A DNA stretch of 38,205 nt from contig JAZSGM010000180.1 in the NCBI GenBank assembly GCA_045532715.1, forward strand, positions 1 to 38,205, in the 5' to 3' direction. Shown piece after piece: positions 11,431-14,683 of this stretch (the first letter of the stretch is position 1; each line of letters begins with the position of its first letter). This DNA comes from Clostridia bacterium. Its GTDB lineage: Bacteria; Bacillota; Clostridia; UBA1381; UMGS1253. The notes under the pieces are model-generated. The model saw only the letters and a program-made list of their open reading frames with translations. It was not told the DNA's origin and searched no databases. Made by a program: the position numbers and the translations under genes.

Positions 11431-13113
11431 ATGAGAATTTTTGACATGCATACGCATATGGGCATTAAGTGCGGTAAGCCGGATGTGCTTGCCGAAATGG
11501 AAAAGGCAGGCGTGTACGGCGGCTGCATCTTTTCGCCGCGCCCGAAGGAGCACAGTAAGGAGTTTGGCGTGGAATTTGAAGAGCGGCTTGCGGCGGTGCT
11601 GGATTTTACGAAGGACCACCGCGACAGACTTTTTCCGATTCTGTGGGTTGACCCGTATGAAAAGAATATTTTTGAAAACATTGATAAGGCTGTAAAGGCA
11701 GGCATCGATGGCTTTAAGATGATTTGCTCGACCTATTTTGTGTATGAAGAGCAGTCACTTGCGGTACTAAAGCATATTGCATCTTATAACAAGCCGGTGT
11801 TTTTCCACTCCGGCATTTTGTGGGACGGCAAGGTTTCGTCGGCATACAATCGCCCGATGAACTGGGAGGCGCTTTTGCCCATCAAGGGATTGCGTTTTTC
11901 GATGGGGCACTGCTCGTGGCCGTGGATTGACGAATGTATTGCGATGTACGGCAAGTTTTTAAATGCCGACAACAAGGGCACGCGTGAGCACGCAGAGATG
12001 TTTCTGGATTTGACACCCGGCACGCCGGACATCTACCGTGAGGAGCTTTTGGAAAAGCTGTTTACCATCGGCTATGATTTTGAAAACAATGTATTTTTCG
12101 GAACGGACTGTTATTCACAGCACTACAATCCGGACTGGACAAAGCATTGGTTAGATACTGACCGCAAAATTATGGACAAGCTCGGTGTCAGCAAGGCGGT
12201 ACGCGAAAAGATTTACTTCGACAATCTTCTGCGCTTCCTTGGTAAGAGTGAGGCAGTTATTGAGCATGCACGTCCGAGTGAGGACAATTCCAATGCGTGG
12301 AGCCCGGTCAATGGCGCAGTGTATGAAATCATTGAGAAGTGGTATAAAAAATTAAGCTTCCCGAAGGTGTATGATGCGGCGTTTAAAAAGGCAATGCGCG
12401 ACATTAAAATTTCCGACGCGATTACAATAGAGAATTATGATATGAAAGAAACGGATGGTAAGCGCAATTTGCTTTCGTATTTATTCTTCTGTGAGGCGCT
12501 TTGCGAAAAGTATGCCGCAAAGGGTATCAGCGAGGATGTTTTAATAGCTACATTGCAGGATATTGTAATTTGGCTCGATACATGGAGCGACTTAAAGGGC
12601 GAGATGTATCTTGGCGAACTCTCGTGGCTCAGATATCATATGTCGATGCGGCTGTTCAGGCTCGGCAGATTGCAGTTTTGTATAGCAGGCGCAGGGCATG
12701 ATATTCCGTCTGCAAATGTAAAAAAAGGCGAACCGGTCATTGAAGTGCACATTCCGGAGGCCGGCAAATTGGACCGTGCAAGCTGCGAAGCCAGCCTTGC
12801 GCAGGCAAGAGAATTTTTCAAAACATATTTTCCGGAATACGATTACAAGTGCTTTACCTGCCACAGCTGGCTCTTGGACGAATCCTTAAAGGACATTTTA
12901 GGTGCAGAGAGCAACATAAGCAAATTCCGTGAGATGTTTGTTTTGGATGTTGCAGAAGAATCTGATGCAATATTTAAGTATGTGTTCCGCTGGAATGCGA
13001 CGAGAAATCAAATACTGAAAATGCCGTGTGCCTCTGGCTTTGCAAGCAGGGTGCAAAAAAAGGCGCGCGAAGGCGGTAAGTTTTACGAAACCGTCGGTTG
13101 GATTCAAAAATAG
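11431..13113 (+). CDS. Fusion: amidohydrolase-type TIM-barrel hydrolase + GNAT-like acyltransferase-domain module
   Basis: N-terminus MRIFDMHTHMG and FHSGILWD fit metal-dependent amidohydrolases. The C-terminal ~270 aa carry GRLQF, VHIPE and CHSWLLD motifs that I remember from stand-alone 'acyltransferase domain-containing' proteins. Confidence 0.6.
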   Translation: MRIFDMHTHMGIKCGKPDVLAEMEKAGVYGGCIFSPRPKEHSKEFGVEFEERLAAVLDFTKDHRDRLFPILWVDPYEKNIFENIDKAVKAGIDGFKMICSTYFVYEEQSLAVLKHIASYNKPVFFHSGILWDGKVSSAYNRPMNWEALLPIKGLRFSMGHCSWPWIDECIAMYGKFLNADNKGTREHAEMFLDLTPGTPDIYREELLEKLFTIGYDFENNVFFGTDCYSQHYNPDWTKHWLDTDRKIMDKLGVSKAVREKIYFDNLLRFLGKSEAVIEHARPSEDNSNAWSPVNGAVYEIIEKWYKKLSFPKVYDAAFKKAMRDIKISDAITIENYDMKETDGKRNLLSYLFFCEALCEKYAAKGISEDVLIATLQDIVIWLDTWSDLKGEMYLGELSWLRYHMSMRLFRLGRLQFCIAGAGHDIPSANVKKGEPVIEVHIPEAGKLDRASCEASLAQAREFFKTYFPEYDYKCFTCHSWLLDESLKDILGAESNISKFREMFVLDVAEESDAIFKYVFRWNATRNQILKMPCASGFASRVQKKAREGGKFYETVGWIQK

Positions 13114-13118
13114 AAAAA

Positions 13119-13150
13119 CGCTCTCCCTTATTTAAGGGGAGGGCGTTTTA
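13119..13150. terminator. Bidirectional terminator (560-aa gene / smORF copy 1)
   Basis: AAAAA, stem CGCTCTCCC.../...GGGGAGGGCG, TTTT. Confidence 0.7.
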
Positions 13151-13157
13151 GCTTTGC

Positions 13158-13271
13158 TTAGCTTTCTTTTGCGCAAATATATGCATCTTCCATTTTGCAT
13201 TGCAGCTGCTTTAATTCTTCAATCATATCCGTGATTTTGTTAAACACTTCAAAATACAGTTTTTCGTCCAT
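13158..13271 (-). CDS. Unannotated 37-aa small protein MDEKLYFEVFNKITDMIEELKQLQCKMEDAYICAKES (copy 1)
   Basis: ATG at 13271, GAGGTG SD (13283-13278) 6 nt upstream, TAA at 13160-13158, terminator downstream. A second copy encodes the identical peptide, and its only 2 nt differences are third-position synonymous changes. Confidence 0.65.
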   Translation of the reverse strand: MDEKLYFEVFNKITDMIEELKQLQCKMEDAYICAKES

Positions 13272-13285
13272 CGTTTTCACCTCTA

Positions 13286-13317
13286 AAATAAAAAAATGCG
13301 CAGCCGAGGCCACGCAT
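13286..13317 (-). terminator. Intrinsic terminator between the leader and the smORF RBS (copy 1)
   Basis: Minus strand: AUGCGUGGC CUCG GCUGCGCAU (9-bp stem) followed by U7. It ends about 8 nt before the SD. Confidence 0.75.
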
Positions 13318-13435
13318 GAAAAACGAGGTCTGTTTGCTGCGACGCAATCACATACACCAACACGGTTATGAGAACCAGACCTGCGTTTTTACCTGAACGC
13401 AAGTCGTGTTAGTGTATATTGTGATTTCGTCGCAA
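13318..13435 (-). ncRNA. Structured leader / candidate sRNA, variant 1
   Basis: Starts at the predicted TSS. The 29-nt arm (13433-13405) pairs with the 26-nt arm (13364-13339), about 25 bp with one 3-nt bulge. Includes G-U pairs that would be A-C on the other strand. The apical 40 nt contain a 9-bp hairpin. Confidence 0.6.
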
Positions 13436-13439
13436 CATT

Positions 13440-13468
13440 ATTGTATCATATTTTTAAAAGGCTGTCTA
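13440..13468 (-). promoter_or_regulatory. Sigma-A-type promoter of module 1
   Basis: Minus strand: TAGACA (13468-13463), 17 nt, TACAAT (13445-13440), with TG one base upstream of the -10. Confidence 0.65.
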
Positions 13469-13492
13469 TACCTTTTCGTCGCAGATTTCGAC

Positions 13493-13530
13493 AAAAAGCG
13501 CCCTTCCCTTAGATCAGGGAGGGCGTTTTA
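13493..13530. terminator. Hairpin terminator at the junction of the two modules
   Basis: AAAAA GCGCCCTTCCCT tagatc AGGGAGGGCG TTTT. Confidence 0.7.
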
Positions 13531-13537
13531 GCTTTGC

Positions 13538-13651
13538 TTAGCTTTCTTTTGCGCAAATATATGCATCTTCCATTTTGCATTGCAGCTGTTTTAATTCTTC
13601 AATCATATCCGTGATTTTGTTAAACACCTCAAAATACAGTTTTTCGTCCAT
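13538..13651 (-). CDS. Unannotated 37-aa small protein, copy 2 (identical peptide)
   Basis: Same SD and ATG geometry as copy 1. It differs from copy 1 only at 13589 (AAG>AAA, Lys21) and 13628 (GAA>GAG, Glu8). Confidence 0.65.
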   Translation of the reverse strand: MDEKLYFEVFNKITDMIEELKQLQCKMEDAYICAKES

Positions 13652-13665
13652 CGGTTTCACCTCTA

Positions 13666-13697
13666 AAATAAAAAAATGCGCAGCCGAAGCCACGCAT
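13666..13697 (-). terminator. Intrinsic terminator between the leader and the smORF RBS (copy 2)
   Basis: Same hairpin as copy 1, with the loop changed to UUCG, followed by U7. Confidence 0.75.
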
Positions 13698-13826
13698 GAA
13701 AAATACATGACTCCGTGTCGTCAAACAAATCCACATTCTAACAGAAAGTATGCAGAATAGAGCATGTATTTTTACCGGAAGGTAAAAAACATACTTTCTG
13801 TTAATGTATTGAGATTTGTTTGACAG
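13698..13826 (-). ncRNA. Structured leader / candidate sRNA, variant 2
   Basis: The 35-nt arm (13824-13790) pairs with the 33-nt arm (13752-13720): 12 bp, an internal loop, then 5 + 13 bp. The apical 37 nt contain an 8-bp hairpin UUUUUACC-uucc-GGUAAAAA. Confidence 0.6.
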
Positions 13827-13830
13827 CATT

Positions 13831-13859
13831 ATTATATCATATTTTCAAAAGGCTGTCTA
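13831..13859 (-). promoter_or_regulatory. Sigma-A-type promoter of module 2
   Basis: Minus strand: TAGACA (13859-13854), 17 nt, TATAAT (13836-13831), with an upstream TG. Confidence 0.65.
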
Positions 13860-13883
13860 TACCTTTTCGTCGCAGATTTCGAC

Positions 13884-13908
13884 AAAAAGCGCCCATATGG
13901 GCGCTTTT
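13884..13908. terminator. Bidirectional terminator after the kinase gene
   Basis: AAAAA GCGCCCA t(a) TGGGCGC TTTT. Confidence 0.7.
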
Positions 13909-13933
13909 AATCGGCTTTGCCAAAGATGCATAT

Positions 13934-14683
13934 TTATTCGTAGTCCATTACATCTGCCCAGGCAAGCAGGAATTCACGTTCGTGCTCGTTGCCCTTCACA
14001 GACTGGGATGCAGCGACGATCGGCATCCATTTTTGCACATACTGCATTGCGGTATCGCTCTTTTTGCAGAACAAGTCGAGATATTTCTTTGCACCTGCTT
14101 CATCACCGGCAAGGCAGAACAAGAGGTAGGTTCTTGCTGCATCGGCGGAGGCATTGCCCTGCGTTGCGTGCGACCAGTCAAGGATATACGGCGTGCCGTC
14201 TGTTTGTACAACAATGTTGGACGGATTAAAGTCGCCGTGGCAGACCTTGTTGTGCTTCGGCATACCTTCAAGGCGGGTATGCAGCTCGTAGCGCGTGGTC
14301 GCATCTAAAGTGGTCTGGCTGATTTTGCGATGCATTTTATCACGCAGCTTGTTTAAGAGCGGTGCGGTTTTACTGTGCATCGTAAGCTGTAAATCCACAA
14401 AGAAGGCGAGATATTCGTCCTTCTTGTCCGGATTTTCTTCCATCAGCTGTGCCAGGGTTTTGCCTTCGATATATTCGGTAATGATTGCCCACTTGCCGTC
14501 GATGGTGGTAACCTCTAAAATTTTCGGAATGTTTAAGCCGGTATCCTCTACTCTTGCGTGGTTGAGCGCTTCGTTTAAAATGTCAGCCTTGGAAAAATCG
14601 GCATTGAATACTTTGATACAGCGGTTCTCTTCGAGATAGACCGTCTTGTTTTTTCTCACTGCAATGACTTTATCGAGCTTCAT
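13934..14683 (-). CDS. APH/choline-kinase-family small-molecule kinase
   Basis: 249 aa with the catalytic-loop motif CHGDFNPSNIVV and YILDWSHA. Confidence 0.75.
   Translation of the reverse strand: MKLDKVIAVRKNKTVYLEENRCIKVFNADFSKADILNEALNHARVEDTGLNIPKILEVTTIDGKWAIITEYIEGKTLAQLMEENPDKKDEYLAFFVDLQLTMHSKTAPLLNKLRDKMHRKISQTTLDATTRYELHTRLEGMPKHNKVCHGDFNPSNIVVQTDGTPYILDWSHATQGNASADAARTYLLFCLAGDEAGAKKYLDLFCKKSDTAMQYVQKWMPIVAASQSVKGNEHEREFLLAWADVMDYE

Follow-up and report, generated by a model that had tools for sequence, protein, structure and literature searches.

Positions 13114–13933 of contig JAZSGM010000180.1, a 38,205-nt stretch of DNA from a Clostridia bacterium that was analysed at its full length (the window), raise a simple question. 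What is the role of two head-to-tail copies of a unit made of a promoter, a structured RNA, an intrinsic terminator, a Shine–Dalgarno (SD) sequence, an identical 37-codon open reading frame (ORF) and a second terminator? Both units are read on the minus strand, between an adhE/APH-kinase operon on one side and, on the other, a convergent gene whose 560-aa product is an amidohydrolase/GNAT protein by its Pfam domains. A sequence-only reading of the locus had proposed the two tandem modules with this anatomy, and a repeat finder, a consensus scan, RNA folding and tblastn all agree with it. The answer proposed here is that the structured RNAs are probably leaders of a new family of transcription attenuators, and the units duplicated cassettes that each carry a conditional terminator.

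The units consist of conserved blocks around a variable middle. The left blocks (13137–13323 and 13517–13703), already recognized as near-identical, are 187 nt long and 98% identical according to the repeat finder. The right-block repeat is also real and only its extent changes, from the 68 nt with two differences first given to 71 nt at 96% identity (13433–13503 and 13824–13894). The middle segments had been described as impossible to align; this holds at the sequence level, but the two are homologous, as a single covariance model derived from other genomes recognizes them both. Each variable segment folds into a long hairpin, one at −74.6 kcal/mol (z-score −8.7) and the other at −63.1 kcal/mol (z-score −8.05), and none of 200 shuffles reaches the stability of either. 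A further statement, that the gap holds nothing in a list of ORFs of at least 60 codons, does not hold to the letter: two ORFs, of 61 and 66 aa and purely mechanical, overlap it.

A leader RNA family of gut Clostridia

The first lead beyond the window came from a distant blastn match of the region in a phage collection. The single record found there, MT835845, comes from human faeces as an UNVERIFIED scaffold and belongs to the family, with a promoter, a different long hairpin of similar apical part, the same terminator sequence and a different downstream gene, encoding a lipoprotein. A scan with the terminator sequence then yielded at least 119 loci among species-representative genomes, almost all of them metagenome-assembled genomes of Clostridia. 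A second, independent pattern, made of the 3′ strand of the first helix (P1) and the start of the tail, yielded at least 120 metagenome loci, and the canonical terminator is present in just 28 of the 121 elements of this set. The two sources, genomes and metagenomes, together gave more than 230 related loci. The named hosts among the matches listed are mainly Oscillospiraceae, Acutalibacteraceae, Ruminococcus, Ruminiclostridium and ‘Eubacteriales’. A covariance model (R1) built from 96 members gives 108 matches in 100 genome loci, some leader–leader tandems included, and scores the two window copies, hereafter A and B, at 128.5 bits (E 3e-24) and 85.1 bits (E 2e-15); it finds no further copy in the window.

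Homologues outside the duplication, without which the sequence-only reading was to be given up, are therefore abundant in genomes and metagenomes. The same reading could assign the unit to no known family and was to yield to any match with one; cmscan against Rfam 15 gave none, either for the window or for typical relatives. In a permissive search of positions 12900–14100, the best results were miRNA hairpins and a terminator look-alike that scored 25 bits where the gathering score is 50, while eight typical members from other genomes matched tRNAs alone at E ≤ 0.01. Literature searches found no description of the leader family. Beyond what had been proposed, the leader and the first terminator together are one conserved RNA family with hundreds of relatives, a large and apparently undescribed one from gut Clostridia. 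Oscillospirales are abundant gut bacteria, mostly uncultured, whose gene regulation is little known; with hundreds of loci retrieved, the leader is apparently one of the common cis-regulatory RNAs of this order.

The position of the element points to its role. An extended −10 motif (TGnTAnnnT) lies mostly 2–6 nt upstream of the first paired base of P1 throughout the family, and the transcript is therefore predicted to start inside P1. At the other end, an SD-preceded start codon is found within 70 nt downstream in 108 of 128 elements, typically 17–25 nt past the matched terminator pattern, so that an intrinsic terminator stands between promoter and SD sequence, as is generic to attenuators. 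No room is left for a separate promoter of the downstream gene, and the nearest long downstream ORF is usually on the same strand as the element. Judged from this arrangement, the RNA is a 5′ leader.

The genes placed under this leader are diverse, and the 37-codon ORF of the window is just one among many different cargo genes, a point that the first reading did not reach. A Pfam census of 98 downstream proteins returned BspA-type leucine-rich repeats (LRR_5, 17 proteins), XRE-type helix-turn-helix domains (9), DUF6809 and zinc ribbons (3 each), and AMP-binding, dockerin, ricin lectin and YpsA (SLOG) domains (2 each). Many other downstream proteins are lipoproteins or secreted and match no Pfam model. 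The cargo thus consists mainly of surface proteins, small XRE regulators and small helical peptides like the 37-aa one, a set that does not suggest a metabolite.

Alternative helices and the proposed switch

The consensus RNA begins with P1 (UUGCGACACAA), an asymmetric AAUAU loop and two further helices, the variable P2 and P3. At the apex lie segment A (UGUAUUUUU), a loop, segment B (GGUAAAAAUGCAU GCUCU) and a junction of ∼4 nt, after which the 3′ strands of P3, P2 and P1 close the rod. A linker of ∼4 nt leads to segment C (GGAGC U AUGCAUUUUU), followed by D (GGUGCGUGGC), a UUCG loop, E (GCUGCGCAC) and a U tract. The five segments interlock: A and B form an apical hairpin (P4), B can pair with C from apex to tail, C can pair with D in an antiterminator of 15–18 bp, and D with E in the terminator. 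That the tail can take either the apex or the terminator as its partner is a further point beyond the first reading.

Pair counts were made on the 96-sequence alignment. P1 is paired in 97.6% of cells, with changes on both sides in all 12 of its pairs, and P3 in 82.7%, with such changes in 7 of 7. For the apical hairpin A:B the figures are 92.8% and 2 of 7 pairs, for B:C 92.9% and 8 of 15, and for C:D 93.9% and 1 of 15, D being fixed here by the search pattern. Examples of covariation in B:C are alignment columns 94:180 (UA 51, UG 26, CG 17) and 95:179 (GC 68, AU 23). In the same set, where D is constant, C changes solely by transitions that keep Watson–Crick or G–U pairs. Every structure outscores all 500 column shuffles on every measure, as well as slid-register controls.

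Swapping segments between members leads to the same picture. Own B:C partners pair at −15.7 kcal/mol against −11.8 kcal/mol for swapped ones (p 4e-29), and own A:B partners at −11.7 against −8.6 kcal/mol (p 3e-21); in the independent metagenome set, C pairs with its own upstream region at −16.5 kcal/mol, against −14.3 kcal/mol. The C:D helix was compared between terminator classes. Own partners are preferred in the class GGGC... (−14.9 against −11.4 to −12.2 kcal/mol), in the canonical-like class (−15.9 against −12.8 to −14.4 kcal/mol) and in the class GCGUGyyUUC (−17.6 against −11.1 to −14.2 kcal/mol). A divergent subfamily from metagenome loci (L131, L178 and L216) has unchanged P1 and GGAG, and differs from the main family in its apical hairpin (GGUACGAA...UUCGUAUCUCU), tail (GGAGAUAC) and terminator (GCGUGUCUUC...GAAGGCACGC); with A as GGUAC, B as GUAUCUCU, C as the tail just given and D as GUGUCUUC, all four relationships are kept. 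Computation and comparison of the members thus demonstrate pairing for P1, P3, A:B, B:C, C:D and D:E alike, the variation in these helices being compensatory or such that wobble pairs are kept. The second feature generic to attenuators, a mutually exclusive antiterminator with comparative support, is found in the C:D pairing, the class swaps and the divergent subfamily. What stands out in the family is the G/U-rich terminator strand D, which lets C co-vary with B and still pair with D.

The energies of the alternative states are consistent with a switch. When the tail and terminator are folded alone, the antiterminator is the minimum-free-energy fold in 88 of 96 members (mean −21.0 kcal/mol, against −16.3 kcal/mol with the terminator forced); if segment C is free, read-through is therefore predicted. 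For the whole leader, the nested minimum-free-energy fold, in which the rod is combined with the antiterminator, has a mean of −65.2 kcal/mol, and the alternative, in which the rod loses P4 and the B:C duplex stands beside the terminator, a mean of −70.4 kcal/mol before any pseudoknot penalty. The read-through and terminating states are thus close in energy, as expected of a switch. In the window, the B:C duplex is computed at −15.4 kcal/mol for copy A and −18.0 kcal/mol for copy B. With an antiterminator of −18.5 kcal/mol against a terminator of −16.4 kcal/mol, copy A looks like a typical switch by these models.

In the mechanism that we propose, a strong sigma-A-type promoter would drive a structured leader of ∼150–165 nt in each self-contained cassette, and the leader would act as a conditional transcription terminator (attenuator) of the gene that starts ∼20 nt downstream. 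A and B would form P4 on top of the rod of P1, P2 and P3, with ∼34 bp enclosing B, and C would be a single-stranded tail beginning ∼4 nt past the rod. As long as A:B is intact, C would pair with D and the terminator loop over 15–18 bp, usually a stabler structure than the terminator, and transcription would continue. Should C pair instead with B and the adjacent unpaired junction of the apex, A would be displaced, D would become free for E, and transcription would stop. The junction next to B (GCUCU) may serve as a natural toehold for GGAGC, the part of C that emerges first. B:C would thereby act as an anti-antiterminator, and a signal would decide between B:C and A:B. Since few unpaired bases are conserved and the cargo shares no pathway, we infer that a metabolite is a less likely signal than a protein, a further RNA, or a cue of a physical or kinetic nature. 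Four mutually exclusive helices are supported by comparison with unusual clarity, which makes the family a good system for studying co-transcriptional RNA folding and switching, and the compact promoter–switch–terminator–SD cassette is a candidate part for engineering gut Clostridia.

Two natural short variants occur, in the regions L119:4503 and L122:2281. They measure ∼120–127 nt and have P1, tail and terminator but lack the apical A/B domain; if the proposed model is true, they should read through constitutively.

In most members an AUG, GUG or UUG stands 2 nt downstream of the SD-like GGAG of the tail (window positions 13699–13715; columns 166–185 of alignment A1), and the junction of B is anti-SD-like (CUCU or CUCC). 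Both are probably by-products of pairing with a UUCG-loop terminator, binding of ribosomes to the tail being a less likely alternative. The P1 strands of most members (UGCGACAC / GUGUCGCA) resemble the terminator strands UGCGCAC / GUGCGUGG (window positions 13813–13824/13720–13731 compared with 13676–13697). As there is no covariation when P1 changes, this likeness is treated as coincidence or shared origin.

As a probable conditional intrinsic terminator, the family belongs to a known kind of mechanism; it is new in its structure, its gene set and its apex-to-tail pairing. Terminator/antiterminator/anti-antiterminator leaders of Firmicutes (riboswitch platforms, T-box, and the B. subtilis trp, pyr and rplJL leaders) are likewise promoter-proximal, with a terminator just upstream of the SD sequence, a mutually exclusive antiterminator and a third element that sequesters an antiterminator strand, a role here proposed for B. 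Unlike them, the present family has no recognizable aptamer, specifier loop, T-box sequence or protein-binding repeat. Its proposed anti-antiterminator is the apex of a ∼34-bp rod pairing with the tail, its antiterminator is stabler than its terminator, D is G/U-rich, and its cargo consists of surface proteins and small regulators, with no metabolic pathway. Attenuators of the E. coli trp type (1:2, 2:3, 3:4) share the overlapping alternative helices and the principle that the fate of the upstream pair decides on the terminator; the family differs in having five segments rather than four and no conserved leader peptide. There is no conserved SD-preceded AUG in segment A or B, and the mechanism is therefore not of the ribosome-mediated kind. 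A ribosome-mediated leader-peptide attenuator was rejected from the alignment, in which the AUGs of segments A, B and C are not conserved and no properly spaced SD sequence precedes them.

In plasmids pT181, pIP501 and pAMbeta1, attenuation is driven by countertranscripts: a complementary RNA pairs with the leader as it is made, so that the antiterminator is blocked and the terminator forms. Here, in contrast, there is no antisense promoter, the complementary segment is carried by the same transcript, and the elements are chromosomal and present in many copies. In pseudoknot riboswitches of the ZTP, SAM-II and preQ1 types, too, a long-range pseudoknot overlaps the expression platform with its 3′ strand; by comparison, the putative pseudoknot of the family has 15 bp and would span an entire long rod, few unpaired nucleotides are conserved, and Rfam gives no match.

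Geometric constraints and rival explanations

Several observations weigh against the attenuator reading. One is steric. The number of base pairs enclosing B has a median of 34 (10th–90th percentile 28–39), and the P1-to-C linker and the junction after B measure ∼4 nt each. The 5′ end of C must meet the 3′ end of B at the apex, and with such short linkers a straight rod forbids B:C pairing within one molecule. For B:C to form, the rod must bend into a U or melt in part, or else the pairing must be between molecules. The sole candidate for a hinge is the conserved asymmetric AAUAU loop above P1, with (G)AAUAUU on its 5′ side and 0–4 nt on its 3′ side, and it is not a canonical K-turn. A K-turn at this place was considered and rejected: the loop adjoining P1 has facing GA dinucleotides, without a 3-nt bulge in the right register. 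A ‘jackknife’ test compared the length of P1 with that of the upper arm (rho −0.44) and indicates that total rod length is conserved, not the matching of the arms; this correlation neither proves nor excludes a U-shaped fold. Other points concern the comparative and energetic evidence. The shuffle controls leave in the effect of kinship among sequences. In the first set, the sequence of D followed from the search pattern, and covariation of C:D therefore rests on the second set and the class swaps. The antiterminator of copy B is weak (−7.4 kcal/mol); combined with its strong B:C duplex, this copy is predicted to terminate mostly. Promoter use, transcription start sites, termination and read-through are all predictions.

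Given the geometry, B:C may form between molecules, an option that we regard as doubtful: leader RNAs already made would then terminate new transcripts of the same locus through a locus-specific ‘self-antisense’ code. If true, surface-protein genes would be under a locus-specific attenuator that senses dosage or gives feedback, is chromosomal and many-copy, and needs neither a dedicated antisense gene nor a ligand. A related explanation takes the ∼160-nt RNA as the product of a small RNA gene that stands alone, has a promoter and a terminator to itself and acts on other RNAs; in a self-specific version, the exposed apical junction (B) of free leaders would bind the tail (C) as it emerges from a nascent transcript of that locus and force termination, a locus-specific negative feedback. 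This version resembles the countertranscript-driven attenuation of plasmids pT181 and pIP501, with the difference that one RNA carries both sense and ‘antisense’. The steric obstacle just described (a rod of ∼34 bp with 4-nt linkers) speaks for such a role, as do the B and C sequences, which differ between leaders, the two in the window included, and the combination of strong promoters with a highly conserved terminator, through which the terminated RNA should be abundant. However, the tight and conserved coupling to a downstream SD sequence and start codon means that the element is at least also a cis-acting leader, and the statistics of these downstream signals weaken the stand-alone reading. 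A foreign B or C partner is just ∼4 kcal/mol weaker than the own one, which implies poor orthogonality, and free B may be scarce, as each terminated RNA carries one B and one C. A small RNA gene of this kind is on balance improbable.

A different explanation places the function in the DNA. The conserved inverted repeat formed by the P1 arms (TTGCGACACAA / TTGTGTCGCAA) could be an invertible switch for phase variation of surface proteins, all other features being incidental. Conserved inverted repeats in many copies upstream of surface-protein genes (BspA-type leucine-rich repeat proteins, lipoproteins) fit this idea, and genes of this profile typically lie behind the invertible promoters of gut bacteria. 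Against it, ∼200 elements from independent assemblies all have one orientation, with GGUAAAA and the B:C complementarity always forward, and five apparent exceptions proved to be forward on inspection. The interior is a covarying helix (P2, P3), needless for inversion, and the covariation of B:C and C:D makes sense at the RNA level alone. The invertible switch, to which we give very little credence, is largely refuted.

It is just as hard to believe that the hairpins are mobile palindromes (MITE, REP or Correia-like) that landed between promoter and gene, the duplication being ordinary and without regulatory meaning: the family does consist of long imperfect palindromes with conserved ends in many copies, but copies with wholly different interior stems have in common the promoter, the tail, the terminator and the spacing to the SD sequence, the reverse of what a MITE family shows, nothing similar lies elsewhere in the window, the plasmid collection gave no match to the region, and the only phage match is a family member. 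A type I toxin–antitoxin module was also considered and rejected; unlike a small hydrophobic toxin, the peptide is hydrophilic, with one helix as its predicted structure, and the consensus scan finds no promoter-like site on the plus strand of the region.

The duplicated cassettes, their relatives and their peptide

Module 1 begins at a bidirectional terminator-like hairpin (13880–13913; inverted repeat I3, with 17-nt arms that are 88% complementary) that ends the upstream APH-type kinase gene. The consensus scan recovers both promoters of the sequence-only reading on the minus strand, each with the upstream TG of an extended −10: TAGACA-17-TATAAT for module 1 (13831–13859, 11 of 12 consensus matches) and TAGACA-17-TACAAT for module 2 (13440–13468, 10 of 12). 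All other features of the modules given here are on the minus strand unless stated otherwise.

Leader copy A (13667–13828), as delimited by the covariance model and the fold, comprises rod, tail and terminator. In the predicted fold, its P1 pairs 13824–13813 with 13731–13720, segment A lies at ∼13793–13781, B (GGUAAAAAUACAUGCUCU) at 13776–13759 and the tail segment C (CGGAGUCAUGUAUUUUU) at 13715–13699; the terminator D:E (13697–13676) is followed by a U tract at ∼13675–13669. Copy B (13287–13437), delimited in the same way, is a divergent member of the family. Its P1 pairs ∼13436–13428 with 13343–13335, and segments A, B (GGUAAAAACGCAGGUCUG) and C (CAGACCUCGUUUUU) lie at ∼13405–13396, 13393–13376 and 13332–13319, before a terminator at 13317–13296 and a U tract at ∼13295–13289. 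According to the consensus scan, both leader terminators have the form ATGCGTGGC[T/C]TCGGCTGCGCAT followed by a T run.

Downstream of copy A, an SD sequence GAGGTG (13663–13658) precedes ORF 1 (ATG at 13651, stop at 13540–13538; whole feature 13538–13663), and downstream of copy B the same SD sequence (13283–13278) precedes ORF 2 (ATG at 13271, stop at 13160–13158; whole feature 13158–13283). The terminator 3′ of ORF 1 (13493–13529, read from the sequence; the same hairpin is listed on the plus strand at 13502–13523) contains the boundary between the conserved blocks. Module 2 ends in a bidirectional terminator with a 15-pair stem (13115–13149) that it has in common with the convergent amidohydrolase/GNAT gene.

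The cassette is duplicated in tandem along with the peptide gene, and the copies carry different leader variants. Between the conserved flanks, the whole sensor region, from P1 through C, is replaced. The number of modules varies between one and two in related strains, which makes the duplication a recent and polymorphic one. One strain (L245) has a single module with an A-type leader. Another (L244) has two, and its first ORF (2133–2261, compared with 13651–13538 in the window) encodes 42 aa with a different C-terminus (…AAKEARKVSV), so that the duplication boundary differs between strains. In another species (L243), a B-type leader and an orthologous peptide lie between the genes of EPSP synthase and ValRS. 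Orthologues of the copy B leader are found in L243, L244 and L246, and the hairpin substitutions in the loci of related strains keep the pairing.

Tandems of two leaders without an intervening ORF occur elsewhere (L024:7172–7568, L011:3742–4229, L062:1–303, L080:7654–8000 and L100:1–319), spaced ∼200–310 nt from start to start, and resemble tandem riboswitches. At L048:6006–6304, three tRNA genes lie ∼600 nt upstream of the leader. Two members are on contigs labelled as viral, MT835845.1 (L001, ‘Bacteriophage sp.’, UNVERIFIED), where the neighbours are a ComEC-like metallo-beta-lactamase protein and a lipoprotein, and IMG/VR UViG_3300029576_000016 (L002); these labels may reflect a prophage or a mislabelled bacterial contig. 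A third viral-contig match (L003) was discarded as a chance match in GC-rich coding DNA, and L025 and L237 are chance matches too.

The identical peptide MDEKLYFEVFNKITDMIEELKQLQCKMEDAYICAKES is encoded at 13651–13541 and 13271–13161, as found by tblastn. At least 160 small proteins (37–99 aa), all annotated as hypothetical, make up its family, which has the consensus MPDYKxMYxxLFNSVTDAIEILxEAQKKAEExYI and is matched by no Pfam, PHROGs or NCBIfam model. The pattern of amino acid substitutions along the orthologous peptides suggests that the 37-aa ORF is a real gene. A leader is directly upstream in two of four randomly chosen homologues, and the peptide is therefore a frequent, not an obligatory, cargo. 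AlphaFold2 predicts it to be one continuous helix (pLDDT 95.8).

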